The notes below the pieces were generated by a model that was not told the DNA's origin, did no database searches, and saw only the letters and a list, made by a program, of their open reading frames with translations. A stretch of 64,000 bases of DNA. Source: an uncultured Candidatus Saccharibacteria bacterium. Lineage in GTDB: Bacteria; Patescibacteriota; Minisyncoccia; Minisyncoccales; RBG-13-42-11. The translations under genes and the position numbers were made by a program. The stretch covers positions 34,468 through 98,467 of the forward strand of contig CAYZSL010000001.1 in the NCBI GenBank assembly GCA_964481125.1, given 5' to 3'. How positions within the stretch are numbered: position 1 is the stretch's first letter; each line of letters starts with the position of its first letter. Of this stretch, positions 18,045-57,179 are shown one piece after another.

Positions 18045-18058
18045 ATAACGCTGTCTTA

Positions 18059-18131: not shown

Positions 18132-18139
18132 TAATGTTG

Positions 18140-18210
18140 TTGCGGGGGCCGGAATTGCACCGGCGTCTCGAGGTTATGGGCCTCGCAAGGTACTACTCCT
18201 CCACCCCGCG
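18140..18210 (-). tRNA. initiator-like tRNA-fMet (CAT) with atypical loops
   Basis: CGCGGGG...CCCCGCA-A acceptor with C1:A72 mismatch as in bacterial initiators; anticodon stem CGAGG/CCTCG, loop CCCATAA; T arm GCCGG-TGCAATT-CCGGC; 71 nt, no CCA. Confidence 0.75.
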
Positions 18211-21516: not shown

Positions 21517-22759
21517 AATTATTTAAAAATTTATCTAAGTCTTTGATTTTCATCAGCTTTGTTTCTTTTTTGTCCCTCAATTTTAATTCAACGGAATTCA
21601 CCTTCAATGTCCTTTCGCTGACAACGATTCTTAAAGGCAAACCGATCAAATCAGCATCAACAAACTTTTCGCCAGCGCTCTTGTCCTGCCTGTCGTCATA
21701 TAATACTTCAATCCCCTGTTTTTGGAAATCCTCATATAAACCAAAAGCTACTTTGTTAATTTTCTGGTTGTTTTCTACCTGAATCAGATGAACCAAGAAA
21801 GGAGCAACTTCTTTCGGCCAAATAATGCCTTTATCGTCATGATTAATTTCAACAATAGCTCCCATTAATCTGCTCAAACCTATTCCGTAGCAACCCATGA
21901 AAACAAGCTTTTCTTTTTTATCCTTTCCAACAAAATTAAGATTAAAAACCTTAGAAAATTTGTTTTTTAATTGAAAAATATTCCCTATCTCAATCGCTTT
22001 TTCAATTGATAAAGACTTATTGCCGCATTTCGGACATTTATTCTTTTCCTGCTTGATTATTTCCTTATTTACGGCCAATTTGCACTTTTTACAAAGATAA
22101 ATCTCGTCTTCACCAGAAGTAGTCAACGTTTGGAACTCATGGGAATATTTGGAGAAGGTACCGCCAGCAGCCAAGGTCAAAAATGTCTTGGTACTTAAAC
22201 CGCATTTATCAAATATATTAAAGTAAGCTTTTTTCATTTTCTCGTAATAACTATCGAGATCTTTTTCATCGGCGTGGAAAGAATATAAATCTTTCATTAA
22301 AAACTCCACTCCCCTTAAAAGACCTGATTTCACCCGCAATTCGTCACGGAACTTATCCTGAATCTGATAAGCATAAAAAGGCAGATCTTTGTACGAGTTA
22401 ATAAATTCTTTAACTAAGGGAGTAATGATTTCCTCGTGGGTCCAACCAAGCGAAAAGTCTTTATCTGAACGGTTTTTCAATTTAAACATTTCAGGATATT
22501 TCCATCTGCCTGTCGTTTCCCAATTCTTCTTAGAATGCAAAGCTGGCATTAGAATCTCCTGGCCTGCAACTGAATTCATTTCATTACGGATAATCTCTTC
22601 AATCTTTTTCTGAACCTTAAACCCCAAAGGTAAAAATGTATATACCCCCGCCATTAATTTACGAACAAAGCCACCTCTTGTCAAAAGCTTGGCATTAATG
22701 CTTTGTTCCTCTTTTGGCGCTTCCCTAATTGTTTTTGTGAAAAGTTGAGATTGTTTCAT
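21509..22759 (-). CDS. proS: prolyl-tRNA synthetase, bacterial type without INS editing domain
   Basis: MKQSQLFTKTIREAP start, FRDELRVKSGLLRGVEFLMKD, GCYGIGLSRL; CKKC...CPKC segment where INS normally sits; 416 aa. Confidence 0.88.
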   Translation of the reverse strand: MKQSQLFTKTIREAPKEEQSINAKLLTRGGFVRKLMAGVYTFLPLGFKVQKKIEEIIRNEMNSVAGQEILMPALHSKKNWETTGRWKYPEMFKLKNRSDKDFSLGWTHEEIITPLVKEFINSYKDLPFYAYQIQDKFRDELRVKSGLLRGVEFLMKDLYSFHADEKDLDSYYEKMKKAYFNIFDKCGLSTKTFLTLAAGGTFSKYSHEFQTLTTSGEDEIYLCKKCKLAVNKEIIKQEKNKCPKCGNKSLSIEKAIEIGNIFQLKNKFSKVFNLNFVGKDKKEKLVFMGCYGIGLSRLMGAIVEINHDDKGIIWPKEVAPFLVHLIQVENNQKINKVAFGLYEDFQKQGIEVLYDDRQDKSAGEKFVDADLIGLPLRIVVSERTLKVNSVELKLRDKKETKLMKIKDLDKFLNNYV

Positions 22760-22761
22760 AA

Positions 22762-23790
22762 TTAAAATAATCTAATAACATCTTTTATCGTTACGAAAAC
22801 CATTAATAAAAGCAATAAGCTGAAAAATACTGCGGTAATATTCTGTTCTATTTTTTGACTGACGGGTTTTTTTCTGACAGCCTCAATTACTAGAAATAAA
22901 AGTTTTCCTCCGTCAAGAGCGGGTATCGGCAGAATATTAAACACGGCCATATAAAGAGAAATCAGTGCTAAAAAAAGAAAAAAATAATGTCCACCTTCTT
23001 TCAAAGCATTAAAAAATAATTTAAAAATTCCGACCGGACCCATTACCTCAACCCCAGTTGGCTGTCGTTTAATTGCAGTGGAAATGGCATTTCCCCATCC
23101 GACAGGTATTTCGACAGTAAACTCACAAGTCCTTAAAAATCCTTTTAATGGAGCCTGATATAAGGGATAATTTCTTTCGATTGGCCCATAACCCAAACCG
23201 ACGCCTAACGCACCCTCGTTTTGAGGCGGAGAAACTCTTGGTATAACAGAAATATTTAATGTTTCTTTTCCCCTCTTAATATCTAGAATAATTTCATTGC
23301 CTTTATTGTTATTGATAATTTTTTGTGCATCGCTTATCCAAAAAATAGGATAATTTATATTACCAACGGTAATTTTTTCAATAACATCGGCTGTTTTTAG
23401 TCCGACGGCTTCCGCCGGAGAAGAAGTAGTAACACCAGAAACAGCTACCCCCATGGGAATGAAAGAAAAAATTATAAAAGAAACTATCCAAAATGAAACG
23501 ACTCCTCCAATAACAATAGCTATCCTTTGCAAAATTGGTTTTCTAAAAAAACTCCGGGGATCGTCCGAGTGCTCTATTTCTCCCGGCATTTTTACGAAAG
23601 CACCTAGGGGCAGAAGATTTAAAGAATAAATAGTATCGCCAATTTTTTTTCCGAATATCCTGGGAGGGAAACCTATGCCAAATTCTTCAACTTTTACTCC
23701 GAATTTTTTTGCCACGAAAAAATGGCCTAGTTCGTGAAGAACAATCAGTCCGATTAAGCTAAAGAAAACGATAAGAATTGTTAAAAACAT
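22762..23790 (-). CDS. rseP: RseP-type site-2 metalloprotease (M50) with PDZ
   Basis: HELGHFFVAKKFGV, NILPIPALDGG, multiple TM helices. Confidence 0.88.
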   Translation of the reverse strand: MFLTILIVFFSLIGLIVLHELGHFFVAKKFGVKVEEFGIGFPPRIFGKKIGDTIYSLNLLPLGAFVKMPGEIEHSDDPRSFFRKPILQRIAIVIGGVVSFWIVSFIIFSFIPMGVAVSGVTTSSPAEAVGLKTADVIEKITVGNINYPIFWISDAQKIINNNKGNEIILDIKRGKETLNISVIPRVSPPQNEGALGVGLGYGPIERNYPLYQAPLKGFLRTCEFTVEIPVGWGNAISTAIKRQPTGVEVMGPVGIFKLFFNALKEGGHYFFLFLALISLYMAVFNILPIPALDGGKLLFLVIEAVRKKPVSQKIEQNITAVFFSLLLLLMVFVTIKDVIRLF

Positions 23791-23791
23791 A

Positions 23792-24352
23792 TTATTCTGA
23801 TATTTCTTTTTTCTTATTCTCTCCCATCTCTTCTATCTTTTTATTGTAATCGTCAACCAGCTCCTGAAGTTCGTCTTTAGCCCGGAATTTGTCGTCTTCC
23901 CTGATTTCTCCCTGTTTTGTTTTGTCCTGGATTTCGCTCCAAACCTCTTCTCTCCATTTTCTAATAGTCCTTCTCGACTGTTCTTCTTTTTCCGCTATGG
24001 TCCTGGTCAAATTCTTCCTGTATTCTTCGTTTAAAGGCGGCAAATTAATCCTGACTGTGTCCTTATCAACAATTGGATTAGCGCCGATTCCCGTCTTTTC
24101 CAAAGCTGAAACAATACCTTCGATATAAGACTTATCCCAAGGCTGAATTAAAATCTGCTTTGCCTCAGGTGTAGAAATGGCAGCCAATTGTTTTAAAGGA
24201 AACTTCTGGCCGAAACAGTCAACAACAACATCCTCCACCAAAGAAGGCGTTGCCCTGCTAGTACGAATCTTATTCATTTCCTTTTCTAAAAAGCCGATTA
24301 CCTTATCCAGTTCCGGTTTAATATTTTGAATGATTGTTTTGTAGCTATCCAT
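23792..24352 (-). CDS. frr: ribosome recycling factor
   Basis: 186 aa, IRTSRATPSLVEDVVVDCFG, PPLNEEYRKNL typical RRF. Confidence 0.93.
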   Translation of the reverse strand: MDSYKTIIQNIKPELDKVIGFLEKEMNKIRTSRATPSLVEDVVVDCFGQKFPLKQLAAISTPEAKQILIQPWDKSYIEGIVSALEKTGIGANPIVDKDTVRINLPPLNEEYRKNLTRTIAEKEEQSRRTIRKWREEVWSEIQDKTKQGEIREDDKFRAKDELQELVDDYNKKIEEMGENKKKEISE

Positions 24353-24357
24353 AAAAA

Positions 24358-25248
24358 TTACATTTCCATTACCAGTCTTTCCAGAGCCAATCTGGCATTA
24401 ACATTGGTCTGGGCAAGCAGTAATTTTGTCGTTTGAATTAGATTAATAATATTTTTTAATTTATCAGTTGAATAGCTTTTAAAGCTAATATCGCAATTGC
24501 CAGAAGAAAAACGGGCAAGCAAAATATCCCTGAAATAATTAAGCCAGACATCCAGGGTTTTTTGCGTTTCTATCGGCTCTTCGCTCAAATCTTTGACATA
24601 CTGGAAGCGGGAATAAAGCATTGATTTTGAAAGATTTTTAACTTCTTCTATCTTTTTCTTGAACGCTCCAACCGCTTTTTTATCGGAAATGAAATCCATA
24701 ACTAGTCCCGGTTTTCCAGAAGAAATGGAAGAAAGCTCTTCTGCCTCTTTTTTCAAAAAACCCTTACCTAACAGATAGCGATTGATTTCTTCCTCTTTGA
24801 CCAGATTAAACTTTACAAGCTGAACGCGGGAAAGAATAGTCGGTAAAAGATAATGTATTTTGTCGCTGATTAAGATTAAAACGCTGTCGCCCCTCGGTTC
24901 TTCCAAGGTTTTCAAAAGCGCTGTCTGAGCTTCCTGATTCATTAAATGGGCATTGTCTATAACCGCTGCTTTCACCGAATTAAAAGAGCTTTTAAGCGAA
25001 AACCTGCGAATCAAATCCCTTATCTGAGAAATCTTTATCTCTTTTTCCTCGGGCGTAATAAAAACAAAGTCTGAATGATTACTGAAATCCTTACTGATTT
25101 TATCGCCAAAAAGCAGCGAAACCCATTGTAAAGCCAAAGTCCTTTTCCCTAATTTTTCAGAACCGGCAAATAAATAAGCGTGGGAAAAAGTCTTATTCTT
25201 AGCTATTTTTTTCAAAAGATTCCATTGTTTTTGGTGTCCGACCAGCAT
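24358..25248 (-). CDS. holB: DNA polymerase III delta-prime subunit
   Basis: HAYLFAGSEKLGKRT degenerate P-loop, ALLKTLEEP, SRVQLVKF clamp-loader motifs. Confidence 0.8.
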   Translation of the reverse strand: MLVGHQKQWNLLKKIAKNKTFSHAYLFAGSEKLGKRTLALQWVSLLFGDKISKDFSNHSDFVFITPEEKEIKISQIRDLIRRFSLKSSFNSVKAAVIDNAHLMNQEAQTALLKTLEEPRGDSVLILISDKIHYLLPTILSRVQLVKFNLVKEEEINRYLLGKGFLKKEAEELSSISSGKPGLVMDFISDKKAVGAFKKKIEEVKNLSKSMLYSRFQYVKDLSEEPIETQKTLDVWLNYFRDILLARFSSGNCDISFKSYSTDKLKNIINLIQTTKLLLAQTNVNARLALERLVMEM

Positions 25249-25251
25249 AGT

Positions 25252-26253
25252 TTATCTTTTATTCATTATGCTCTTTTTGTAAACATCAAGGTTTTCCAAA
25301 ACTACGCCCGTTCCTTTGGCCACGCAAAGCAAAGGGTCTTCAGCCAGGAAGCAAGGAACGCCTGTCTCCCGGGAAATCATTTCTGTAATGTTTCTTAATA
25401 ATGCGCCGCCACCAGAAACAATCATGCCCTTGTCAATTATGTCAGCCGATAATTCAGGCGGCGTATCCCTTAATACAGTTTTAATAACATGGATAATATC
25501 TCCCAAAATTTCAGAGATCGCTTCGGCAATTTCGTTGGAAGAAATTTTAACTGTTCGAGGCAAACCGGAAACCAAATCCCTGCCGCGAATTTCTATAAAT
25601 CTTGGCTCTTTTTCCGGTATGGCTGTACCTATTTTCATTTTAACCTCCTCTGCTGTCTGTTCTCCGATAGCTAAATTGTATTTTTTCTTTATATAATCTG
25701 AAATGGCAAAATCCATTTTGTCTCCGCCAATCCTGACAGAATTACAAGTAACTATTCCCCCCAAAGATATAACAGCTATTTCAGAAGTCCCGCCCCCAAT
25801 ATCAACAATCATATTACCAGAACAGGAATTAATCGGAATGCCAGCGCCAATGGCTGCTAAAATCGGCTCTTTTGCCAAATATGCCTGTTTGGCACCCGCA
25901 TTCAAAGCAGCCTCAATCACTGCTCTTTTCTCGGTTGAGGTAATGCCAGCTGGTACGCCTATCATTAATTCAGGTTTTAAGAAACGCCAAAAACCGCATA
26001 CTTTGTCAATAAAATGCCTTAGCATTGCCTGAGTCACCCTGAAATCAGCAATCACTCCGTCTTTTAAAGGACGATAAACCCTAATTGTGTCTGGAGTACG
26101 ACCGATCATTTCTTTTGCTTCTTCCCCGATTGCCAGAATTCTGTTCTCTTCTAAGGCGACAGCAACAACTGAAGGCTCTTGCAAAACCACTCCTTTGCCG
26201 GGAAGAAAAACCAAAGAATTGGCAGTACCCAAATCTATACCTATTTTTCTCAT
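25252..26253 (-). CDS. mreB: actin-like MreB (paralog 2)
   Basis: IGIDLGTANSLVFL, GRTPDTIRVYRPL, DIGGGTSEIAVISLGG. Confidence 0.9.
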   Translation of the reverse strand: MRKIGIDLGTANSLVFLPGKGVVLQEPSVVAVALEENRILAIGEEAKEMIGRTPDTIRVYRPLKDGVIADFRVTQAMLRHFIDKVCGFWRFLKPELMIGVPAGITSTEKRAVIEAALNAGAKQAYLAKEPILAAIGAGIPINSCSGNMIVDIGGGTSEIAVISLGGIVTCNSVRIGGDKMDFAISDYIKKKYNLAIGEQTAEEVKMKIGTAIPEKEPRFIEIRGRDLVSGLPRTVKISSNEIAEAISEILGDIIHVIKTVLRDTPPELSADIIDKGMIVSGGGALLRNITEMISRETGVPCFLAEDPLLCVAKGTGVVLENLDVYKKSIMNKR

Positions 26254-26283
26254 AAATATATTAACAATTAATTCAAATCTATC

Positions 26284-27480
26284 TTATCTTAATTCCCGTC
26301 TTTTGACAAATATACCAACTATCAAAACTACAATAACTACGAAAATCCCGCCGAAAATAAACACTAAATCATATCCGAAAAAACCAATAAGCAAGCCGGA
26401 AACCAAAGCTCCTAAAGCAACGCCTAGGGGAGCAAAAACAGTATCAATGGCACTGGCTTCTTCCGGCTCTGTCTTAAAGCTTCTGGAAACCAATCCTGAA
26501 CGGCCAGAATTGCAAATTAAAGCGCCGGCAGAACGCAAAACATTAATTAGCAAAACGCTGAAAAAATTCAAAAAACCACTAGCTAGACCAAAGATAATCG
26601 ACAATAGTCCAGCAATCAACCCGCCCCGAAAAATACTTGCTCTACTATTACTCTTTTCTAAATATTTAATAAGTAAGAAAGATAAAGGAAGAAATAAAAC
26701 TGAAAAAACTGAAATAAAAATCAGAATTAAATTCTGCGACCAGACCAATTGCTCTTTTAAAAATAAAACGAAGAAAGCATGGTAAAAACCGGCTAAAAGC
26801 AAAACGGAAAAAGAAATCAAAAGAAAAGGCAGAATACTTCTCTTTTTTAAAAGCTGAAAAATCTTTTGGTAGTTATTTTGGGAATCCCCAACCTTAAAAC
26901 CTGCATCCGTTAAAGTTCTTGCTGGCTTCCTTAGTTTAAAAAAACAAAAAAAGGCGGTAAAAAGATGAAGAACTATGCTTAAAATAAACACTCCGACAAA
27001 ATTAAACTGCCAGACAAAAAAAGCGCCGACAGCCGGAGCAATGGCATCAGCATAAAAAGGAGCAGAATAAAACCAACCGAAAGACCTGTCAGTATTCTCT
27101 AAAGGAAAACCCATCAAAATAGACCTAATTGAAACAAAAAACAAGGCAGCAGAAACCCCGAGTAAAACCTGCCAGAAATAAAACAAGGTATGATTTTGAA
27201 TTAAAATCATACCCAAAGCGTAAAGCGCATAACCTAAAATGCCAATGGCTGAAAGTATTGCCGGATTGATCTTGTGATTCAAAAAACCGGCAATCGGAGC
27301 GAATAAAGCAAGAGGCAAATAAATAAGCAAAAAAGCATAACCAACCTCAGGTAAAGACAAGCCACGAGCAACCAAAAACAAAGGGAAATACAAAGAAAAT
27401 GTTTTGTAGCCAAACAATAAAAAGAAATGGACTATGGTTGCATCCATGGTTATCTTTTCTATCTTGGGAATGAAAAACAT
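26284..27480 (-). CDS. MFS-type transporter
   Basis: ~12 predicted TM helices in two halves, loop RKPARTL; alternative start ATG 27447 (MDATIVHFF). Confidence 0.65.
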   Translation of the reverse strand: MFFIPKIEKITMDATIVHFFLLFGYKTFSLYFPLFLVARGLSLPEVGYAFLLIYLPLALFAPIAGFLNHKINPAILSAIGILGYALYALGMILIQNHTLFYFWQVLLGVSAALFFVSIRSILMGFPLENTDRSFGWFYSAPFYADAIAPAVGAFFVWQFNFVGVFILSIVLHLFTAFFCFFKLRKPARTLTDAGFKVGDSQNNYQKIFQLLKKRSILPFLLISFSVLLLAGFYHAFFVLFLKEQLVWSQNLILIFISVFSVLFLPLSFLLIKYLEKSNSRASIFRGGLIAGLLSIIFGLASGFLNFFSVLLINVLRSAGALICNSGRSGLVSRSFKTEPEEASAIDTVFAPLGVALGALVSGLLIGFFGYDLVFIFGGIFVVIVVLIVGIFVKRRELR

Positions 27481-27569
27481 ATTCAGTTATTCTAGCAACT
27501 TTAAAATAAAAATAAAATGCGCCAAACCATGCTCTTTTCAAAATGTCAAGATTGATATAGAATAATCAT

Positions 27570-28874
27570 ATGACCAAAAAGACAAAAACAATACTGTTTT
27601 TAACCTGTTTGCTTACGTTCATTCTATTGGCGCCCTCAATAGTCCTGTACTCCCAAGGATACAGAATTGATTTTAATCCTCCGGCTGGCGGAAAAATGAT
27701 CACCCAAACCGGAGGCCTTTTTTTCAAAGTCACGCCCAAACAAACAGATATTTATATTGACGGCAAACTTAAAAAAAGAACTGATTTTCTATTCGGTTCT
27801 GTTTTAATTGAAAACCTCGTTCCCGGAAAGTACAAAGTAGAAATCAAGAAAGCAACCAGCCAGGAAGAATACTATTCCTGGGAGAAAAACCTGGAAATAC
27901 GGGAAAAACAGGTAACTGAAGCTAAAAACGTTGTCCTTTTCCCCAAAAACGTTAATTTCAGCGTTTTATCAACCAATGTAGAACAGCTTTGGCTTTCTCC
28001 AGACCAAAAGAAACTGATATTAAAAGAAAACGAAAAAGCCAGCTGGTCCTTAAAGCTTTACGACCCGGAAAAGAATATAAAGAGCCATTTAATAAGCGAC
28101 GAGGATTTCTTCACGAAAGAACCCCAATTAATCAATCTGGAATTCTCGGGAGACTCAAGAAGTATTAATCTGAAAGTCAGCATAAAAGAAGCAATACAAT
28201 CTTTCTCTCTGCAACTTGACCAAGCAAAACCGACTTTAAATAAAAAAACAGCAGCCACAACGACAACTGGAAACGCTGCTATTTCGCAACAAGCAGGTAA
28301 TGACCTCTATTATTTGGACAGTTTCGGCTATCTTTTCAGGAATAAAGAAAAGCTGGCAGAAACTCCCTTTCAAACAAAACAAGAAACAGAATATGCTTTA
28401 GATATTTTCAACGGCAACATATTCTTAAAAGAAAACGACAAACTGTATAAATTCAATTATAATCTGAAAACATTTGAACATTTCTTTGACGGAATCAATG
28501 TCTTAAAGCTTTCTCCAGACAACAAGAAACTGCTTTACGCTTCAAACAATGAAATGTGGATTCTTTTCCTGGAAGACAAAATCGACCAGCCACAGAAAAA
28601 ATCAGGAGAGAAAGTCTTTTTAATCCGCTTATCAGACAAAATCACAAGCATCTCCTGGATAAACGACAATTACCTGGCTTTTCTTGCCGGGAATACCGTT
28701 AAAATCACTGAAATAGACGACAGGGACAAAATCAATATTATAGACATATTTGAAACAAAAAATCTCCCCCAAGAAGGAAGCATTAATGAAATGTTCTGGA
28801 ACAGGTTTAATAATAAAATCTATCTCTTGGACGAAAACGGCTATTTATACAGCTCTAACGTCCTGCTCCCGTAA
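27570..28874 (+). CDS. membrane-anchored protein with PEGA-like beta domain and repeat-rich C-terminal part
   Basis: N-terminal TM (ILFLTCLLTFILLAPSIVL), DIYIDGK...LVPGKYKVEIKK resembles a PEGA domain; rest unassigned. Confidence 0.7.
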   Translation: MTKKTKTILFLTCLLTFILLAPSIVLYSQGYRIDFNPPAGGKMITQTGGLFFKVTPKQTDIYIDGKLKKRTDFLFGSVLIENLVPGKYKVEIKKATSQEEYYSWEKNLEIREKQVTEAKNVVLFPKNVNFSVLSTNVEQLWLSPDQKKLILKENEKASWSLKLYDPEKNIKSHLISDEDFFTKEPQLINLEFSGDSRSINLKVSIKEAIQSFSLQLDQAKPTLNKKTAATTTTGNAAISQQAGNDLYYLDSFGYLFRNKEKLAETPFQTKQETEYALDIFNGNIFLKENDKLYKFNYNLKTFEHFFDGINVLKLSPDNKKLLYASNNEMWILFLEDKIDQPQKKSGEKVFLIRLSDKITSISWINDNYLAFLAGNTVKITEIDDRDKINIIDIFETKNLPQEGSINEMFWNRFNNKIYLLDENGYLYSSNVLLP

Positions 28875-29552
28875 TTTGATTTTCTTTTTAAAAGCTTCCC
28901 AGCCCATCTCTCCAGTATTGGCTATAACGCAAACTTCCTTGAACTGGCAATAGCGGCACTGCCAATTATCGGGGTAATCTAATAATCTGTCGGGAATAAC
29001 GTTTTTATCAATCTTCTTTCTGATACCAGCCAAAAAGTCCAAAAGAGAAAGGGCGCATTTTTTATCGTATTTCACCACAAAATCCTTTAGCTGCTGATTA
29101 TCTTTGTTAACGTAAAGCAGTATACCTTTAGGAATCTTAAAATAATGCAGATAAAGCTGAAGCTGAGCAATATTTTCCTCCTTTGGCTCAGTTAACTTAC
29201 CAAAAATCATACTGTTCATGCTTTTAATATCCAAAACATACAGATCCTTGCCATCGCTGATTATGGCATCAGCCCTACCTGAAATCAGTTCCTGAGGAGG
29301 AATATTCACTTCAGCAGCCACCACGTGTATTTCCCTGGTACTCAAAAGCGGCTTCATGATAAGCTGATGAATATGATCGCCGTGGTCAAACAACCTTAGA
29401 ATATTAGCCTCCATTTCTTTTCTGGGAACGTTTTTAAACTTAAAAAACAAAGCTCTGCCGCATTTGCCTGCGTCAGTAATGTAAAAGTGATGCTGCTCTT
29501 TATCTCTCTGTCTGTCCAGATAGAATTTATCGATAATATCTTTAAGGGACAT
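28845..29552 (-). CDS. Cas4/RecB-like PD-(D/E)XK nuclease with Fe-S cysteine set (solitary)
   Basis: N-terminal Cys (DAGKCGRAL), GRADAI...YVLDIKS (D...D-x-K), QLQLYL (QxxxY), C-terminal CRYCQFKEVC (CxxCx5C). Confidence 0.7.
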   Translation of the reverse strand: MSLKDIIDKFYLDRQRDKEQHHFYITDAGKCGRALFFKFKNVPRKEMEANILRLFDHGDHIHQLIMKPLLSTREIHVVAAEVNIPPQELISGRADAIISDGKDLYVLDIKSMNSMIFGKLTEPKEENIAQLQLYLHYFKIPKGILLYVNKDNQQLKDFVVKYDKKCALSLLDFLAGIRKKIDKNVIPDRLLDYPDNWQCRYCQFKEVCVIANTGEMGWEAFKKKIKLREQDVRAV

Positions 29553-29591
29553 AAATGTTTTATTATTTTCGACGCTGAGAAGCTTAACCCA

Positions 29592-29619
29592 TTGACAATA
29601 TTTATGGATATGCTATAAT
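29592..29619 (+). promoter_or_regulatory. strong consensus sigma-70 promoter with extended -10
   Basis: TTGACA (29592-29597) - 16 nt - TGc TATAAT (29611-29619) read directly. Confidence 0.65.
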
Positions 29620-29625
29620 CAAAAT

Positions 29626-29708
29626 AGAGGTCAGCGAGACTCTACTTTAGAGCAAACGGAAGGGACGAGTATTTTAATCAGGGCCCTTTCTACCTTTCTC
29701 GCTTTTTT
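29626..29708 (+). ncRNA. candidate small structured RNA (~83 nt), family unknown
   Basis: Begins ~7 nt after the -10; GCGAGA (29634-39) pairs with UCUCGC (29697-702) followed by U6 (29703-08); inner hairpins CUCUA-CUU-UAGAG and GGAAGGG/CCCUUUC; no plus-strand ORF downstream. Confidence 0.4.
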
Positions 29709-29715
29709 ATTTCCG

Positions 29716-30201
29716 TTATCTCTTCTGCCACTGAGGAGCACGACGAGCGCGTTTTAATCCAAACTTCTTTCTTTCCCTCATCCTCGGATCTCTTTTCAAA
29801 AAACCAGCTTTTTTCAACTGTTTCCTCAATTCTGGATCGAATAAAACTAAAGCGCGAGTTAAACCGTGTCTGACAGCTTCAGCCTGGGAAGTCGTCCCTC
29901 CCCCTTTAACCCTTACTGAAACCTGAAATTTGTCAGAATAATCAGTCAAACTCAAAGGAGACAGAATAATACGCTGAAGATATTTTGTCGGAAAATAATT
30001 TTCAGAAGTCCTTGTATTTATTAAAAAAGTCTTTTCTTTTTGAATAGAAATTCTTACTCTGGCTACAGCTGTCTTTCTCCTGCCTATACCCTCAAAGTAC
30101 TTAGCTATTTTAGGTTTAACTGTTACTTTAACAGTTTTTTTAACCGGAGCTTTTTTAACTTTCTTTACTGTTTCTTTTTTTGTTTTTTTAACCTTTGGCA
30201 T
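29716..30201 (-). CDS. rpsI: 30S ribosomal protein S9 with Lys-rich N-terminal extension
   Basis: GRRKTAVARVRI, C-terminal KKFGLKRARRAPQWQKR. Confidence 0.95.
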   Translation of the reverse strand: MPKVKKTKKETVKKVKKAPVKKTVKVTVKPKIAKYFEGIGRRKTAVARVRISIQKEKTFLINTRTSENYFPTKYLQRIILSPLSLTDYSDKFQVSVRVKGGGTTSQAEAVRHGLTRALVLFDPELRKQLKKAGFLKRDPRMRERKKFGLKRARRAPQWQKR

Positions 30202-30541
30202 ATTTTAATCTTTTAATCATTTTTGCTCTTAATTTGTTCTTGGGCAGCATGCCGAAAACCGCTTTCCTCAAAACTTCTTCCGGATTCTTCTCAAATAACT
30301 TCTCCAAAGTTATCTCCTTCAAGCTTCCCAGATATCCGGAATGGCGGTAGTATTTCTTCTGTTTGGCTTTTTTGCCGGTGAACTTCAACTTATCAACGTT
30401 TTGGACAATGACAACATCGCCAATATCTTTGTACGGCGCAAAGTCTACTTTCTGTTTCCCCCTCAAAAGCAAAGCTATTTCAACAGCCAGTCTGCCTAAA
30501 ACCTTATCAGTAGCATCTATTGTGTGGATTTTGCGTTCCAT
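30188..30541 (-). CDS. rplM: 50S ribosomal protein L13 (short form, 117 aa)
   Basis: IDATDKVLGRLAVEIALLLRGK, YYRHSGYLGSLKE, GMLPKNKL. Confidence 0.93.
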   Translation of the reverse strand: MERKIHTIDATDKVLGRLAVEIALLLRGKQKVDFAPYKDIGDVVIVQNVDKLKFTGKKAKQKKYYRHSGYLGSLKEITLEKLFEKNPEEVLRKAVFGMLPKNKLRAKMIKRLKYAKG

Positions 30542-30543
30542 AG

Positions 30544-30894
30544 TTATTTAACCAATTCTATTATGGCTATTTTGGCAGCATCTACTTTTCTTTGGCCAAG
30601 CTTAATAATTCTGGTATATCCCCCTTTTCTTTCTTTGAACCTCGGGGCAATCTCATCAACCAATTTCTTAACCACTTTCCCGGTAAAAAACTTTGCCAAT
30701 AATCTGCGCGAAGCCAAAGTGCCGACTTTCGCTTTGGTAATCTTTTTTTCGACGAAAGAGGAAACCTCTTTTGCCTTAGCTTCTGTTGTTTTAACTTTTT
30801 CTTTCAATATCAAAGCAGCAGCTAAAGATTTTAAAAGAGCGTTTCTTTGGTCTTTTTCCCTATTTAGTTTTTTCCCCTTTTTTCTTTTTCTCAT
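30544..30894 (-). CDS. rplQ: 50S ribosomal protein L17
   Basis: MRKRKKGKKLNREKDQRNALLKSL, GGYTRIIKLGQRKVD. Confidence 0.93.
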   Translation of the reverse strand: MRKRKKGKKLNREKDQRNALLKSLAAALILKEKVKTTEAKAKEVSSFVEKKITKAKVGTLASRRLLAKFFTGKVVKKLVDEIAPRFKERKGGYTRIIKLGQRKVDAAKIAIIELVK

Positions 30895-31690
30895 TTTTTA
30901 CTTTTTTGCTTACTGCTTTCTTTTCTTTTTTTGGTTTCTTGGCCGCTTTTTTCTTTTCTTTGACTTCCGGTTCTACAGATACAGCTTTCGGCTGGAAAGC
31001 TGTAGCCAACAACGAAAAGTGGTTAATTAAAATTTCCGAAGCCTGATAAAATGCCTGTTCCGGATCGATAATGCCGTCTGTTTCAATTTCCAGAAACAAT
31101 CTGTCAAAGTCAGTTCTTTCTCCGACACGCATATTCTCAACCCTGGAACTTACCCTTTTTACAGGAGTAAAGCTGGCATCCAGCAGAATAGCTCCTATCT
31201 CTAATTTTTCAGGCATGGAGCCTGCTGTTTTTTTCCTTGTTTCGCGGCTGGAATAGCCGATTCCCTTTTCAATCTGGATTTCCATTTCCAGTTCAGCTGA
31301 TTTTGAATTCAAAGTGGCAATATGGCAGTTTTTATTTACCAATTCCACTTGACTGGACAGCTTGAAATCAGAGCCCTTGACTATTTTTTCTCCTTTTACT
31401 TTTAAGGTCGCTTTCTGTGGCTCGTCGCTGAAAAGCTTAAATCTCAATTGCTTCAAATTAAGCATTATGGTGATAACGTCTTCTAAAACTCCTGAAATCG
31501 TTGAGAACTCATGGGAAACTCCCTTGATTTTGACCTGGGTAACGGCAGCTCCCTCAAGCGAAGAAAGCAAAACCCTTCTCAAAGAATTGCCGACGGTTAC
31601 TCCGTAGCCGGGATGCAAAGCTTCTATTTCAAAAACAGCTTTGTTCCCTTCTTTTTTAACGATTTTTGGAACGTGAGGTAAATTAATCAT
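30860..31690 (-). CDS. rpoA: DNA-directed RNA polymerase alpha subunit, NTD only plus Lys-rich tail
   Basis: GYGVTVGNSLRRVLLSSLEGAAVT, HEFSTISGVLEDV; start set to ATG 31690 (MINLPH); last ~44 aa are K/E-rich, no alpha-CTD recognisable. Confidence 0.9.
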   Translation of the reverse strand: MINLPHVPKIVKKEGNKAVFEIEALHPGYGVTVGNSLRRVLLSSLEGAAVTQVKIKGVSHEFSTISGVLEDVITIMLNLKQLRFKLFSDEPQKATLKVKGEKIVKGSDFKLSSQVELVNKNCHIATLNSKSAELEMEIQIEKGIGYSSRETRKKTAGSMPEKLEIGAILLDASFTPVKRVSSRVENMRVGERTDFDRLFLEIETDGIIDPEQAFYQASEILINHFSLLATAFQPKAVSVEPEVKEKKKAAKKPKKEKKAVSKKVKNEKKKKGEKTK

Positions 31691-31691
31691 A

Positions 31692-32321
31692 TTATTTTGA
31701 ATAAAACTCGAAAATTGCGGAGAGTTCTGCCGGTGGGACAGCCTCTTCCAAATTTGGTGAATCGATGACCTTTGCCTCCAGCTTCTCGGCATCTAATTTG
31801 AGCCAAGACGGAGGATTATATTTTTTTAAAGTAGATGATAACTTTTGGAAAATTGTTTTTTTTAAAGAATTGGGGTTAACGCTTATTTTGTCCCCTTTCT
31901 TAACTAGATAGCTGGAAATATTAATCGGCCTGTCGTTAATCATAAGATGGCGGTGAGAAACCATTTGTCTGGCAGCAAATTTGGAAGGAGCGAAACCTAA
32001 TCTGAAAACTACATTGTCCAAACGGCTCTCCAAAGTCTTAATCAAAGCAGCGCCGGCATCTGCCACCTTTCCCCTGGCCTTCAAAATATCTTTAACGTAG
32101 TTCCTAAATTGCTTCTCTTCCAAATTGTACCAGTTCTTTAATTTTTGTTTTTCCCTTAATTCTTTGCCGTATTCAGAAAGCGATTTCACTCTTTTTTTAG
32201 CTTTTGGCCCTGGCGGATAAGGTTTTTTGATCATTGGACATTTCTGCGATGAACACCTTTCGCCTCTCAAAAAAAGCTTAATTCCTGCACGACGGCAAAT
32301 TTTACATTTAGAAACATTCAT
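31692..32321 (-). CDS. rpsD: 30S ribosomal protein S4
   Basis: CKICRRAGIKLFLRGERC zinc-type N-terminus, S4 RNA-binding domain VSHRHLMINDRPINISSYLVKKGD. Confidence 0.95.
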   Translation of the reverse strand: MNVSKCKICRRAGIKLFLRGERCSSQKCPMIKKPYPPGPKAKKRVKSLSEYGKELREKQKLKNWYNLEEKQFRNYVKDILKARGKVADAGAALIKTLESRLDNVVFRLGFAPSKFAARQMVSHRHLMINDRPINISSYLVKKGDKISVNPNSLKKTIFQKLSSTLKKYNPPSWLKLDAEKLEAKVIDSPNLEEAVPPAELSAIFEFYSK

Positions 32322-32325
32322 AAGT

Positions 32326-32775
32326 TTATACCCTTCTTACTTTTGGCTTACGACAGCCGTTATGCGGAATCGGAGTCATATCCTTAATTGAAACTATTTC
32401 CAAGCCCCTGGCAGCCAATGACCTGATGGCTGAATCTCTGCCAGAACCTATCCCCTTTACGAAAATCTCTATCTTTTCAATCCCTATTTTCTCGGCAATC
32501 TGGACAATTGCTTCAGCTACTTTAGAAGCAGCAAAAGGCGTTGCTTTTTTTGCTCCTTTGAAACCGATATTGCCAGCGCTAGTCCAACCCAAAACATTAC
32601 CCTTTGGATCTGTCAAAGTAAGGATGGTGTTGTTATAAGAAGAAGCAATATAAATTCTGCCCTCTTGTATCCTTTTAAGGGTTTCTTTGGCCTGCTCTTT
32701 CACTTTCGTTTCCATGGCTTCACCTTCTTTCAAAATCTCTTCTTCAGTTTGTCGTATAACACGTTTTTTGCCCAT
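32326..32775 (-). CDS. rpsK: 30S ribosomal protein S11
   Basis: GRIYIASSYNNTILTLTDPKGN, TPIPHNGCRKPKVRR; start set to ATG 32775. Confidence 0.95.
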   Translation of the reverse strand: MGKKRVIRQTEEEILKEGEAMETKVKEQAKETLKRIQEGRIYIASSYNNTILTLTDPKGNVLGWTSAGNIGFKGAKKATPFAASKVAEAIVQIAEKIGIEKIEIFVKGIGSGRDSAIRSLAARGLEIVSIKDMTPIPHNGCRKPKVRRV

Positions 32776-32779
32776 AGTA

Positions 32780-33169
32780 TTATGTAGGTCCCGGAGGTGG
32801 CTTTCTGCCAGAACCAACTGTCTTTCTTGTGTTTCCCCTGACAGTTCTCGTATTGGTTTTGGTTCTCTGCCCCCGCACAGGCAGGCCTTTAATGTGCCTG
32901 ATGCCTATCCAGGTTCCTGCGTCCTTCAACCTTTTAATATTCATCATAATTTCTCTTTTCAAATCGCCCTCTGTCTTGTAATTCTTCTCAATAATGTCTT
33001 TTAAGGTAGACACTTCCTGAGTGGTCAATTCTGAAGCTTTTTTTGTCTCTCCAATACCAGCTTCCTCTAAAATTTTCTTGCTCAAAGAACGGCCTATTCC
33101 GAAGATATAGGTTAAAGCTATTTGTATTTGTTTTTTTTCAGGGATGTTAGTCCCGGCGATACGTGGCAT
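32780..33169 (-). CDS. rpsM: 30S ribosomal protein S13
   Basis: MPRIAGTNIPEKKQIQIALTYIFGIG, GLPVRGQRTKTN. Confidence 0.95.
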   Translation of the reverse strand: MPRIAGTNIPEKKQIQIALTYIFGIGRSLSKKILEEAGIGETKKASELTTQEVSTLKDIIEKNYKTEGDLKREIMMNIKRLKDAGTWIGIRHIKGLPVRGQRTKTNTRTVRGNTRKTVGSGRKPPPGPT

Positions 33170-33174
33170 AAGTT

Positions 33175-33291
33175 TTATCCTTGACGCTGTTTATGTTTGG
33201 GATTTTTTTTGCAAATAACATAAATTCGTCCTGATCTTCGGACGATTTTACAATCTTTGCAAATTTTCTTGACCGATGGACGTACTTTCAT
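33175..33291 (-). CDS. rpmJ: 50S ribosomal protein L36 (38 aa; below the ORF-track cutoff)
   Basis: Hand translation of the minus strand gives [38 protein letters not shown]; canonical position between infA and rpsM. Confidence 0.93.
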
Positions 33292-33324
33292 AATAAAAAA
33301 ACAATAATGACTTATTGCGCGAAA

Positions 33325-33540
33325 CTATTTTCCGCGGTATGTTATTCTTCCTTTTTTCAGATCATAGGGGCTTAATTCAACCGTCACCCTGTCGCCCGGC
33401 AAAACCTTTATCCTGAACATTCTTAATTTACCTGCCAAATGACACGAAACCTCCTCCCCGTCATCCAGTTTAACCTTAAAATGCGTGCTGGGAAGAGCTT
33501 CTGTGATTATTCCGGTTTTTATTAAGTCATTCTTATCCAT
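33325..33540 (-). CDS. infA: translation initiation factor IF-1
   Basis: 71 aa S1-like fold, [32 protein letters not shown]. Confidence 0.95.
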
Positions 33541-33588
33541 TAAATAGGCAATTTTTTAGTTTATCAGAAATTAGTTATTTGGTCAATG

Positions 33589-34914
33589 CTAATCAATGAC
33601 CAGATTAAATTTAATCTTACTTAGGTCTTCTGGCACCTTATTGACCCAGAACGGCCAAAACTTGACGCTGGCCCTAGTGATCTTGGGATAGTTTTCCAAG
33701 AAGAGCTTAGCCTCAAGCAAAGACTTTCCTTTTAAGGCGTTTTTAAAGCTGAAAATGTCAACATCAGCATAGATTTTAGCTGAAATTGTCAGAGAAACAG
33801 CAATTTTGCCGGTTTCTAAATCAACATCGTCAATAGAATAATTTATTTTCAAACTTTCCTCATAAAGCTTTTTATCCTGGGGAATCTGAAAAATAATCGC
33901 CTCTTTAACGTAATTCCTGATATCTTCTTTCTTAAATACTATGACTTGGCATTGCGCTTTCGCCTGGTAATTAAAATCTTTTGCTTCTGCTTCAGCAGAA
34001 GTCAAAGAAAAGTTCTCAATAATTTCTGTCTGGATGCTGTCTGGCAAATAATCGAATTTGGAAGAAATCGCTTCTGACTGCAGTTCATTCTGCAGCAGTT
34101 CATTACATTCTTTTCCCGCTTGTTTTGTCAAAGTTTCCTCAGCTTGAGATAAATCTTTTTCTGTCACTTTGGCAACCTCTTCCTGAAAGCCGCCTGTCAT
34201 AACTTCAAAAGATTCGCCGTAGAATTTAGTGTATTTGTCTGTGCCGGCAAATCCCGGTATGGAGAACTTGGTTGAAACGATATTATATTCTTCGCCCGGC
34301 TGATCTGCTACCACCTTTACGTCTATTTCTCCGGGAACAAGCTTCCCCTTCTCATAAGTGCCTCCGGGAATGGTAACTTTAATTGGCGTACGGAATACCT
34401 TTCCGTCAGATGAAACGAAACGGGTGGTGGCTATCAAAGCTTGAGCAGAAGTCGAATAAGCGTTGTATACTTTTATCGTGCCTTGTGCCTTCTCCTCTTT
34501 CATAATTTTACCGGAAACCGGAAAAGTCTGAACAATGGTTTTTTCTTTCTGAAGCGTTTCCGCCGGAATAATCTTTAAAAGAGAATCAATAGCTGTTGCG
34601 TTTTTGTCGATATTCGTTTCTTCTATAAGATTAAAAACTTCTATCTCCGGCCAAATGCTTATTTCAGCCTTAGACAAAGCAATGTAGCAGAACGCTCCTA
34701 ATAAAACCAAAAAAAGCAAAGAAAAAGTCAAACCCTTTTTAAAAGGCGGATTAGGAGCTTTTTTAGAAAAACCCCATAAAGGAGCTCTGGGCTTTTTCTC
34801 TGGTTCTATCTTTACTTCCTGTATTTCCTGCTCTTTGTGCTCCTCCTTTTTTTTCTCTTTTTTTGAAGGAGGAAAAACGTCTATTACTTTTTTGCTCATA
34901 ATAACATTATACAC
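33589..34914 (-). CDS. hypothetical membrane-anchored protein (441 aa)
   Basis: Lys/Glu-rich N-terminus, one TM (LTFSLLFLVLLGAFCYIAL), large beta-rich exterior domain; no family recognised; alternative start ATG 34899. Confidence 0.7.
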   Translation of the reverse strand: MYNVIMSKKVIDVFPPSKKEKKKEEHKEQEIQEVKIEPEKKPRAPLWGFSKKAPNPPFKKGLTFSLLFLVLLGAFCYIALSKAEISIWPEIEVFNLIEETNIDKNATAIDSLLKIIPAETLQKEKTIVQTFPVSGKIMKEEKAQGTIKVYNAYSTSAQALIATTRFVSSDGKVFRTPIKVTIPGGTYEKGKLVPGEIDVKVVADQPGEEYNIVSTKFSIPGFAGTDKYTKFYGESFEVMTGGFQEEVAKVTEKDLSQAEETLTKQAGKECNELLQNELQSEAISSKFDYLPDSIQTEIIENFSLTSAEAEAKDFNYQAKAQCQVIVFKKEDIRNYVKEAIIFQIPQDKKLYEESLKINYSIDDVDLETGKIAVSLTISAKIYADVDIFSFKNALKGKSLLEAKLFLENYPKITRASVKFWPFWVNKVPEDLSKIKFNLVID

Positions 34915-34923
34915 TATTTATGC

Positions 34924-36582
34924 TCATTCCAAAACAGCTCTGATCCTCCTGATGCCAGCGCTGGAAGACTCTTCCTTAACAACCTTGAAATGACCGAGCT
35001 CGCCAGTACGGCTAACGTGGGGTCCACCGCATATCTCTTTTGAAAAATCGCCGATACTGTAAACTTTTACTTTCTCTTCATATTTATCTTCGAAAACTCC
35101 GGTCGCTCCCTTCTTCTTTGCTTCATCTAAACTCATTTCTTCACAAACCACAGGCAAGTCTTCTTTGATTTTCTGATTAACAATCTCTTCAACTTCTTTA
35201 ATTTCTTTTTCTGTCATCTTTTCTGGATGGGAAAAATCAAACCTCAGTCTCTCAATTGTGATATTGCTTCCTTTTTGAGAAACCTGACCACCCAAAACCT
35301 TTCTTAAAGCAGCTAACAACAAATGATTGACAGTGTGATATTTAACTACTTGCTCAGAATTGTCGGCTAGGCCTCCTTTGAACATGCCAGAAGAAGAAGT
35401 TCTTGAAAGTTCTTGGTGTTCTTTGAATTTTTTATTAAATTCTTCCACGTTAATATCCCGCCCTCTTTCTTTAGCCAACTCTAAAGTCAATTCTAAAGGA
35501 AACCCGTAACTGGTATATAATTCAAAAGCGTCTATGCCTTTTTCAAACTGTTTCAATCCCTCCTCCAATGTCTTCTCAAACTTTTCCTCTTCGTTTTGAA
35601 TTGCCGTTAAAATATCAGCTTCTTTTGATTTCAGTTCTGGATAAATATCTTTATACATTTCAATCGCTTTTTGCGCCAAAGGTATTAAGAAGTTCTCTGG
35701 TAAATTAAGTATTTTTCCGTATCTTATCGCCCTCCTTAAAACCCTTCTCAAAACGTATCCCCTTTCAACGTTGGAAGGCAATATTCCATCAACAATTAGA
35801 AAAACAGAACTTTTAACATGGTCAGAGATAATTCTTTTTGCTTTTTCATTATCACCCGGAATCTCATTTATAATCGGTAAAAACAAATCAGTCTCAAAAA
35901 CTGATTTTTTACCCTGAACAACCGTTGCTAATCTTTCTAATCCCATGCCAGTATCAACACCTTTCTGTTTTAAAGAAATAAGTTTACCTGATTTATCCTG
36001 GTAATATTCGTTAAATACCAAATTCCAAACCTCAATACCGTTAAAATGAATTTCAGTTGTCGGACCGCAAGGCCCTTCTTCGCCTGTCGGTCCCCAGAAA
36101 TTATCCTCTCTGCCGCACTTTTTAATCCTATCTTCTGAAATTCCTAATTTTTTCCAAATTTGGATTGAATCTTTATCTTCAGGAACCTTCCCACCTCCTT
36201 TAAAAACAGTAAAAATAGCCTTATTTAAGGGTAATTTCAACTCTTTAAAAAGAAATTCATAAGTCAGCTTTATCGCTTCTTCTTTAAAATAGCCGCCGAA
36301 AGAAAAATTCCCCAGCATTTCCAAAAAAGTCAGATGACTATCATCTCCCACCTCTTCAATATCTGACGTCCTAAAACACTTCTGGCAGGAACAGACATTC
36401 TGGCCAAAGGGAGATTTTTCACCAAGATAATACGGCTTGAACTGCTGCATGCCAGCCGTAGTAAACAAAACACTTGTGTCAGTCGGTATAAGAGAAGACG
36501 AGGGCACTATTTTGTGTCCATTTTTTTCAAAAAATTCTAAAAACTTTCTCCTCAGGTCTTTTGAGTTCATTAAAATTTCCAT
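34924..36582 (-). CDS. alaS: alanyl-tRNA synthetase, shortened (no C-Ala domain)
   Basis: FLEFFEKNGHKIVPSSSLIP, FTTAGMQQFKP, GMGLERLA; editing-site HTVNHLL...CGGPHV; ends right after IRRIRAVLE; 552 aa. Confidence 0.9.
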   Translation of the reverse strand: MEILMNSKDLRRKFLEFFEKNGHKIVPSSSLIPTDTSVLFTTAGMQQFKPYYLGEKSPFGQNVCSCQKCFRTSDIEEVGDDSHLTFLEMLGNFSFGGYFKEEAIKLTYEFLFKELKLPLNKAIFTVFKGGGKVPEDKDSIQIWKKLGISEDRIKKCGREDNFWGPTGEEGPCGPTTEIHFNGIEVWNLVFNEYYQDKSGKLISLKQKGVDTGMGLERLATVVQGKKSVFETDLFLPIINEIPGDNEKAKRIISDHVKSSVFLIVDGILPSNVERGYVLRRVLRRAIRYGKILNLPENFLIPLAQKAIEMYKDIYPELKSKEADILTAIQNEEEKFEKTLEEGLKQFEKGIDAFELYTSYGFPLELTLELAKERGRDINVEEFNKKFKEHQELSRTSSSGMFKGGLADNSEQVVKYHTVNHLLLAALRKVLGGQVSQKGSNITIERLRFDFSHPEKMTEKEIKEVEEIVNQKIKEDLPVVCEEMSLDEAKKKGATGVFEDKYEEKVKVYSIGDFSKEICGGPHVSRTGELGHFKVVKEESSSAGIRRIRAVLE

Positions 36583-37094
36583 TAGCTGTATCTATCAGCT
36601 ACTGATGAAGCAGCGAAAGATTCCGGCTTGATTTTCGGCTCAAAACCGTTCCCTTTTATCAAACCGGTAACCTCTTTAATCATGTCCCTAGTTTTTCCGT
36701 TCTCGCCAACATCGGCATGAATGTAGCGAAACTGATAGTTAAGATTTGCTTTTCCGAGCCTTTCAATCACCTTTTCAAAATTTTCCCTCAGATATAAAGC
36801 GAACTGACAGGAAAGATAAACTTCCTCTAAAATCCTCTGCTTCCAGTTATAGAAAATCCTTCCTTTATAATCTATCTTCTTAAGAAAAAACCTGCCTCCC
36901 TCGCCCACTCTTAAAACAACTACAGCCAAAGGAAAATGCGGCTCTGTGCCGGAAGAGGAATCGCAGCCAACGATAACATCGTAAAACTTTTCAGGCTTTT
37001 CAGAAATATAATTAATTATCTCCTCAACCACCTTTTCAATCTTAAGATCGCCCTTGGTCGGATTAAAAAAATAGCCGTTTAGAATCTTATCCAT
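36582..37094 (-). CDS. YkuK/DUF458-like RNase H-fold protein
   Basis: VIVGCDSS ... LAVVVLRVGEGGRFF ... IHADVGENGKTRD pattern recalled from the YkuK family. Confidence 0.55.
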   Translation of the reverse strand: MDKILNGYFFNPTKGDLKIEKVVEEIINYISEKPEKFYDVIVGCDSSSGTEPHFPLAVVVLRVGEGGRFFLKKIDYKGRIFYNWKQRILEEVYLSCQFALYLRENFEKVIERLGKANLNYQFRYIHADVGENGKTRDMIKEVTGLIKGNGFEPKIKPESFAASSVADRYS

Positions 37095-37132
37095 AATTTA
37101 ATGCTTAAAAATAACAAAAATACCCAATAAGG

Positions 37133-37864
37133 TCAACTTTTCCTCACGCTTTTAATAAAGTCTTTGGCGTTCAGAGAGGCTGCGCCGATTAAAGCGCCGT
37201 TTATACCATCAACAGCAACAAACTCTTTAATATTCCTGCTGTTTACGCTCCCGCCGTACAATATCCTCAATTTCTGAGCAATATTTTTACCAAATAATTT
37301 AAACAAATTATTCCTGATAAAAGCTGCTCCTTGTTCAGCTTGTTTTGGAGTAGCTACTTTTCCGCCTTTTGTCGTGCTTATCGCCCAAACAGGCTCGTAA
37401 ACAACAACTAAATTCTTAACCTCATTTTTATTAATTTCAGATAAAGCTCTTTCTAGCTGTTTCTTAATTTCTTTGAATTCCTGCTTCTGGTTTTTGCTTT
37501 TACTACCGACACAAAGAATCGGCTTCAAACCAGTCCCTAAAACTGCCTTTAATTTCCTGCTGACTATTTCATCTGTTTCCTTCAGAATTTCTCTTCTCTC
37601 AGAATGGCCAATCATGACATATTTCACACCGATGCTTTTCAGCATCAAGGGAGAAATTTCTCCGGTAAAAGGCCCGCCGCAACAAAAACAATCCTGGGCT
37701 CCCAGTTTCAAACCAGGACCGAGAGAAGCAATATATAAAAAAGGAGGGCAAATAACCACCTCCGCTTTTTTAATATTTTTTACCCCTTTAGCAACAGAAT
37801 CAAAAAGCTTTTTAGCTTCTGTTAAACTTTTAGGGTTGCATTTCCAGTTTGCGACAATCAACAT
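37133..37864 (-). CDS. tpiA: triosephosphate isomerase
   Basis: MLIVANWKCN, MIGHSERR, YEPVWAISTTKG, LYGGSV. Confidence 0.93.
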   Translation of the reverse strand: MLIVANWKCNPKSLTEAKKLFDSVAKGVKNIKKAEVVICPPFLYIASLGPGLKLGAQDCFCCGGPFTGEISPLMLKSIGVKYVMIGHSERREILKETDEIVSRKLKAVLGTGLKPILCVGSKSKNQKQEFKEIKKQLERALSEINKNEVKNLVVVYEPVWAISTTKGGKVATPKQAEQGAAFIRNNLFKLFGKNIAQKLRILYGGSVNSRNIKEFVAVDGINGALIGAASLNAKDFIKSVRKS

Positions 37865-37890
37865 AATCGTTGTTTTATTATAGAACTTTT

Positions 37891-56882: not shown

Positions 56883-56907
56883 ATAGCTAAATCTCTATAT
56901 TTAATAA

Positions 56908-57173: not shown

Positions 57174-57179
57174 AATTTA

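Follow-up and report, generated by a model that had tools for sequence, protein, structure and literature searches.

An orphan, ORF-less unit with a consensus promoter opposing the rpsI–nuclease operon end of a Patescibacteria genome: a candidate young cis-antisense small RNA

We report the analysis of a 163-nt spacer (positions 29553-29715) that separates the ribosomal protein gene rpsI from the gene of a PD-(D/E)XK/Cas4-family nuclease in a 64,000-nt stretch of a Patescibacteria (CPR) genome with 38% G+C, hereafter the window. The spacer is a lineage-specific insert in a hypervariable junction. It carries a sigma-70-type promoter that matches the consensus hexamers at all 12 positions and points against both flanking genes, and no open reading frame (ORF) follows this promoter. 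Comparison with related loci suggests that the unit is orphan and recently inserted, and that it represents at best a new cis-antisense small RNA whose function finds no comparative support. Taken alone, the candidate antisense RNA is of little consequence: it is young, and no conservation backs a function. What the comparison brings forward is the junction itself: the site behind the last ribosomal-protein gene turns over quickly between CPR genomes that share 95% identity elsewhere, and it has been seen empty, with a protein cassette, with a toxin-antitoxin pair and with an RNA-only unit. If the RNA is expressed, the window would provide a clean natural case of a newly inserted convergent promoter set against a ribosomal operon and a co-transcribed nuclease gene.

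Both flanking genes lie on the minus strand. The rpsI gene (29716-30201; ribosomal protein S9, identified from its ORF and from the match of an identical protein to PF00380) is the last gene of an operon with the order S13-S11-S4-RpoA-L17-L13-S9, and the nuclease gene (28845-29552; 235 aa) matches the Pfam families PDDEXK_1 (1.1e-6) and Cas_Cas4 (2.1e-6), both above the curated cut-offs. The initial annotation had described the promoter as opposite to every neighbouring gene, a description that is correct for these two genes but not for the gene at 27570-28874, which is encoded on the plus strand. In a set of 160 related rpsI loci, drawn from GTDB species genomes and JGI metagenomes, the nuclease gene was found 3′ of rpsI and on the same strand in 129 (132 entries less three same-species copies), most of them accompanied by a convergent gene of 434 aa, and the rpsI-nuclease arrangement is hence described here as a conserved operon end in this clade. 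Within this clade, the Cas4-family PD-(D/E)XK gene seems to be fixed as the final gene of the ribosomal-protein operon, often overlapping rpsI by 4 nt, and between the window and one related locus (L001) the nuclease is 89% conserved, above rpsI itself (79%).

In 36 of the 129 relatives no more than 10 nt separate the two genes, or they overlap by 4 nt, and for this reason we take them to form one operon. On the minus strand of the spacer, promoter and terminator scans yielded no terminator and no promoter with at least 9/12 consensus positions (none better than 8/12), so that an mRNA extending from rpsI to the nuclease gene must cross the spacer. This lack of minus-strand signals, together with the contiguity or overlap of the genes in many relatives, makes read-through from rpsI the most likely mode of transcription of the nuclease gene.

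The promoter (29592-29619, plus strand) is composed of TTGACA (29592-97), a 16-nt spacer and TATAAT (29614-19) preceded by an extended -10 TG (29611-12), giving TGcTATAAT; on re-reading the sequence, all the coordinates originally proposed for these elements, and the extended -10, proved correct. Across both strands of the window the pattern TTGACA-N16-18-TATAAT occurs five times, against 0.03 occurrences expected from 100 dinucleotide shuffles, and the site at 29592, the only 12/12 match within 22000-38000, is far beyond chance. All five sites are intergenic, all five read TTGACAA, and four are correctly oriented towards a gene or short unit, as exemplified by the site at 4554 on the minus strand, which is followed by AAGGAGG and ATG. 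Because of this placement and orientation, perfect-consensus sites appear to mark real promoters and transcription units in this genome.

It is very unlikely, in our estimation, that the spacer merely holds a promoter-like sequence generated by chance, with no consequential transcript, and serves as an intercistronic or 3′-UTR part of the rpsI-nuclease mRNA. Such an account is in keeping with the need for minus-strand RNA to cross the spacer, and with a 13-nt inverted repeat, 85% complementary, that connects the stop-codon region of rpsI (29711-29723) with the middle of the spacer (29649-29661) and could form on either strand if transcripts pass the T6 run described below. It is hard to reconcile with five perfect sites, all intergenic, where 0.03 are expected; in addition, the minus-strand fold is no better than that of shuffled sequences (z = -0.25), and the covariance model of elemA, a structured element that follows rpsI in relatives (see below), finds no match in the window.

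Transcription from this promoter would start about 7 nt after the -10 element and is predicted to end at a T6 run, yielding an RNA of about 83 nt (29626-29708, plus strand). The structure put forward in the initial annotation, a closing helix around two inner hairpins followed by U6, was recovered at the same positions and is the minimum-energy fold computed by RNAfold (-20.4 kcal/mol), with pair probabilities of 0.77-1.0 for all 19 pairs. The closing helix AGCGAGA/TCTCGCT spans 7 bp (29633-39/29697-703), made up of the core GCGAGA/TCTCGC (29634-39/29697-702) and a seventh pair, A29633/T29703; it encloses hairpin 1 (CTCTA-CTT-TAGAG, 29640-52) and hairpin 2 (GGAAGGG/CCCTTTC, 29658-64/29684-90). 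Shuffled sequences reach a mean of -18.1 kcal/mol (sd 3.2), which places the native fold at z = -0.73, with 45 of 200 shuffles equal or better; the fold is thus no more stable than chance for this composition.

The T6 run (29703-08) abuts the closing helix and lies 8 nt before the rpsI stop codon, so that a tract of at least five U directly after a stem is present, behind TCTCGC. The initial annotation regarded this arrangement as a terminator. The helix and U6 are indeed there, but a compact canonical hairpin is absent: the only helix adjoining T6 has 6-7 bp and encloses 57 nt, and the terminator scan called nothing on either strand of 29553-29715. The scan admits loops of 3-8 nt and passes over this helix because of its 57-nt enclosed loop. 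We consider the T6 end a possible non-canonical (branched) intrinsic terminator, at best a weak one. Compact hairpins end the cassettes of relatives and the other mini-locus of the window, unlike the unit at 29553-29715, and the next terminator-like site on the plus strand after T6 lies at 30713-30738.

The statement that no plus-strand ORF follows the promoter was borne out, since no ORF starting with ATG, GTG or TTG was found. It is extremely improbable that the unit instead encodes a cryptic, type I toxin-like peptide, initiated at an AUU (29671) located 6 nt after GGAAGGG and comprising a hydrophobic ORF of 28 codons (MLIRALSTFLAFLFPLSLLPLRSTTSAF). From 29620 onward 45 codons are free of stops, the Shine-Dalgarno-like GGAAGGG is at the right distance and sequestered in a hairpin, and relatives carry other payloads at this junction that encode small hydrophobic proteins (L166, L038, L019, L144) or a toxin-antitoxin pair (HicAB). 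Nevertheless, the ORF has no ATG, GTG or TTG start and no detected homologue, one open frame of 45 codons among three is not unusual, and the reading frame runs past T6 and 36 nt into rpsI antisense, which is incompatible with termination at T6.

Known RNA families offer no identity for the transcript. At the gathering threshold, a scan of the whole window with Infernal and Rfam 15 (4227 models, GadY and Bacteria_small_SRP among them) returned only four tRNAs, and no family in the spacer; ARAGORN places the four tRNAs of the window at 17967-18210 and 54792-54862 and detects no tRNA or tmRNA in the spacer. With the cut-off relaxed to E ≤ 10, the sole Rfam match in 29450-29800 is RatA (RF01776) on the minus strand. 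The unit resembles the RatA/TxpA system in being a small structured RNA in an intergenic spacer with a weak cmscan match, and differs from it in having no toxin ORF with a canonical start; at 19.8 bits against a gathering score of 49, and with E = 4.5, the match amounts to noise and we rejected RatA as an identity. A search of the literature in full text returned nothing on small RNAs of this kind in Patescibacteria.

Homology searches were equally restrictive in their outcome. Over the 160 rpsI loci, blastn and nhmmer recovered the spacer from only five contigs, all of the same species and 100% identical, and a covariance model (R1) built from the window sequence and its fold scored no higher than 16.2 bits across about 1.1 Mb from relatives, corresponding to the rpsI neighbourhoods of 180 related loci. 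The spacer is invariant across the five contigs, which come from five samples, and this zero variation is uninformative about selection. No second copy of the unit is present in the 64-kb window. Exact-word scans of IMG/VR with a 22-mer and a 27-mer of the unit gave no matches, and a phage origin was rejected on this basis.

These results bear on the possibility, raised in the initial annotation, of a small trans-acting RNA. RsaE and RoxS are trans-acting small RNAs with C/U-rich anti-Shine-Dalgarno motifs, and the unit is comparable to them as an independent promoter-to-terminator arrangement of some 80-100 nt with repeated pyrimidine-rich motifs, namely two direct copies of CCTTTCT (29685-91 and 29693-99, plus strand) that are anti-Shine-Dalgarno-like by sequence alone. 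An RNA of about 83 nt could by analogy use both CCUUUCU motifs to pair with the Shine-Dalgarno regions of distant mRNAs. A strong promoter without an ORF behind it, a defined fold of three helices closed off by a U-run, the pyrimidine-rich repeats and the GGAGG-like character of Shine-Dalgarno sequences seen both in the window and among relatives are all compatible with such a role. We nonetheless judge it unlikely: a conserved family is unsupported, with no sequence or structure homologue in any relative; the unit has neither homology to RsaE/RoxS nor a second copy, and is not conserved even where the flanks are 95% identical; and the first CCCUUUC is buried by base pairing in hairpin 2. The search for targets yielded none. 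The best complementarity within the window joins the loop and 3′ side of hairpin 2 (29674-29690) to positions 1171-1187 of the plus strand at 16 of 17 positions; it falls in a coding region (ORF 679-2298) and, with E ~0.06 for the window, is probably due to chance.

The comparison of junctions places the unit in an evolutionary context. Among the 129 relatives the spacer has a median length of 54 nt, ranges from -4 to 2463 nt and exceeds 150 nt in 38. Through the 90% cluster of the nuclease protein we located loci L166-173, which share the flanks of the window and not its spacer. In L168-173 (GCA_016782605) the rpsI and nuclease flanks are 94.4-94.5% identical to those of the window and the junction measures 5 nt. 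In L166/L167 (Nealsonbacteria RBG_13_38_11 and a second assembly), with flanks 94-96% identical, the junction holds an unrelated cassette of 396 nt in the same orientation, consisting of TTGACA-17-TATAAT, GGGAGG, an ORF for a 68-aa hydrophobic membrane protein and a compact hairpin terminator; the points at which homology with the window breaks off lie no more than 10 nt from the start codon of the nuclease gene and, on the other side, 7 nt into the 3′ end of rpsI. Overall, the 90% protein clusters and a nuclease homologue search gave three lineages with flanks 94-96% identical, none of which contains the unit, and there are no nuclease clusters between 98% and 88% identity.

Other occupants appear at greater distance. 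A lineage whose nuclease is 88% identical (L175-179, L185/186) carries a HicB (UPF0150)-HicA toxin-antitoxin pair between rpsI and the nuclease gene in sense orientation, and L001 and L180 have spacers of 6 nt. Locus L081 has an orphan ORF of 109-124 aa behind the promoter TTGACA-16-TGaTATAAT, which lies 34 nt from the nuclease start, the same position as that of the window; the L081 cassette is also present in L082, with a damaged -10. Further relatives contain orphan small membrane proteins, a PDDEXK_3 gene or ORF-less units behind perfect promoters (L031/L144, L065, L072). Perfect promoters recur at the junction in L081, L144, L031, L038, L065, L072 and L166, all of them pointing to rpsI; their distance from the start codon of the nuclease gene is 19-48 nt in six lineages and 104 nt in L065. 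In the expanded spacers, every promoter with at least 11/12 matches is antisense to rpsI, and no sense-oriented promoter of that quality exists in any of them.

Since near-identical flanks hold either 5 nt or an unrelated cassette, and distant relatives hold HicAB, orphan ORFs, ORF-less units or nothing, the rpsI/nuclease junction is, as judged from these alignments, an insertion-prone slot, and the unit in the window, seen in this species only, is a young, recently acquired occupant. Conservation of the spacer and its hexamers along with the flanking genes had been proposed in the initial annotation as a check on the locus; with flanks 94-96% identical, the spacer and hexamers are not conserved, being absent (L168) or replaced (L166/L167), and a conserved RNA gene is therefore refuted. 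Variation between near-identical genomes also affects other operon junctions, given that a 125-nt insertion (L168:2385-2509) separates rplM from rpsI in a relative 94-97% identical to the window, in which these two genes overlap.

Several origins were considered for the insert. An imperfect T-rich direct repeat of 13 nt, 11/13 identical, brackets the unit on the plus strand (TTTATTATTTTCG, 29559-29571, and TTTTTTATTTCCG, 29703-29715) and may be an insertion mark or a product of chance; apart from this repeat, no trace of an integrase, recombination site or target-site duplication came to light. A MITE or other repeated mobile element was rejected in view of the single copy in 64 kb, the lack of terminal inverted repeats and the imperfection of the direct repeat. 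The L081/L082 cassette in a decayed state was likewise rejected, as global alignment joins the promoter end only. Upstream of the -35 element, AGAAGYTTAAC matches L081 at 10 of 11 positions, a value equalled by 15 of 1000 shuffles, so that promoter-proximal homology to L081 is suggestive only. In local alignment with the payloads of eight relatives the transcribed part scores no better than dinucleotide shuffles, and its translated comparison returns only the trivial antisense of rpsI.

Rapid turnover of the slot, with unrelated payloads in near-identical genomes, invites a neutral explanation: the unit could be a relic or by-product, left when a cassette with its own promoter, or a piece of one, entered the slot with its payload missing or never functional. 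It would have no selected role, and its promoter would be intact only because the insert is young. Promoters at the same position in L081/L082 and L166 drive a protein gene that ends in a compact hairpin terminator, neither of which the window has, and both the chance-level fold and the absence of homologues from all sequence sets searched agree with a relic. On the other hand, neither the nucleotide sequence of the transcribed part nor its translation detectably resembles the payloads of relatives, which leaves decay from a known cassette unsupported; T6 abuts the closing helix exactly, just before rpsI, in a manner that looks designed rather than random; and the unit is fixed in five contigs from five samples. 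We regard this explanation as a serious alternative, though less probable than the reading that follows.

Our preferred reading is that the unit acts in cis, if it acts at all: pairing of the antisense RNA, or transcriptional interference, would affect how the nuclease gene is coupled to the ribosomal genes. We hold this reading tentatively, at somewhat less than an even chance. The 163-nt insert would have landed at the insertion-prone junction of a Nealsonbacteria-like Patescibacteria genome, where a very strong sigma-70-type promoter would fire against the ribosomal-protein operon and generate an ORF-less RNA of about 80 nt, stopping 8 nt short of the rpsI stop codon at the helix and U6. 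The sense mRNA would read through from rpsI across the spacer into the nuclease gene. Because the nuclease mRNA likely crosses the spacer, the plus-strand RNA would be cis-antisense and fully complementary to the intercistronic part of the rpsI-nuclease mRNA, and its synthesis would collide head-on with transcription of the operon; should U6 fail to stop the transcript, it would continue antisense into rpsI. Cleavage of the duplex or interference could thereby uncouple nuclease expression from that of the ribosomal genes, or dampen it relative to them.

The proposal of an antisense regulator, already contained in the initial annotation, is favored by context, in that the minus strand of the spacer has neither promoter nor terminator, and is weakened by the lack of conservation and the chance-level fold. 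Antisense control does not appear to be generally required at this junction, because close relatives (L168, L001, L180) do without the unit, and an insert younger than about 5% divergence would be expected to retain an intact promoter even if no selection acted on it.

A precedent for a cis effect of this kind is found in Escherichia coli, where GadY (Rfam RF00122) is encoded opposite the spacer between gadX and gadW and brings about processing of the mRNA that carries both genes. Like GadY, the predicted RNA is short, is driven by a promoter of its own and is encoded opposite the spacer between two genes, here probably co-transcribed; it overlaps the region of the 3′ end of the first gene and owes its perfect complementarity to the operon mRNA to position alone. 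The two differ in that the unit shows no sequence or structure similarity to GadY, with no GadY match in Rfam at E ≤ 10, and occurs in one species only, in a CPR host; it belongs neither to that family nor to any other in Rfam, and the likeness would lie in the way of working.

The junction also invites comparison with accessory-gene hot spots, the strain-variable slots that hold toxin-antitoxin and orphan genes. It likewise contains nothing, HicB-HicA, PDDEXK_3, orphans or ORF-less units between flanks that stay collinear, and it departs from such hot spots in that the occupant in the window has no ORF at all. One could extend the comparison and view the junction as a dedicated site at which mini-cassettes with their own promoters land; the unit would then be a minimal, RNA-only payload endowed with a function of its own, such as that of an RNA antitoxin, a decoy or a partner of the adjacent, unusually conserved Cas4-family nuclease; we consider this highly improbable.

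Putative structured RNAs of other kinds occur at the same junction in relatives. In at least 12 related loci a conserved element of 125-135 nt, elemA, begins directly after the stop codon of rpsI, with copies at L072:4403-4539, L130:3400-3524, L038:3358-3483 and L065:4391-4530 and further instances in L093, L035, L019/L142, L029, L101, L146 and L011. It appears to form a three-way junction with the closing helix AAUUUUUAGGA/UCCUAAAAAUU, and 10-11 compensatory pairs are observed among four sequences. Its covariance model (R2) matches 14 related loci, 13 of them directly after rpsI. The element matches no Rfam family. It is missing from the window, where R2 gives no match at E ≤ 1; the idea that the unit is a reduced elemA was accordingly rejected.

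On the minus strand of their loci, L031 (2127-2322, 190 nt) and L144 (3765-4178, 410 nt) encode putative ORF-less RNAs behind 12/12 promoters that adjoin the nuclease start. The two share a covarying 5′ module of 70 nt (GGUAAGGGG...CCCCUCUUGCC in one and GGUACGAAGG...CCUUCUGCC in the other) and a TCTCG..CGAGA-T6/7 terminator, and neither has a match in Rfam or ARAGORN. Within the window, another perfect promoter without an annotated gene, TTGACA-18-TATAAT, reads from 57209 to 57180 on the minus strand (unit 56880-57209), where Rfam returns only terminator-driven noise; as read from the sequence, it is followed by AAGGGAG, ATG and an ORF of 58 codons, which crosses one hairpin terminator and stops before a second.
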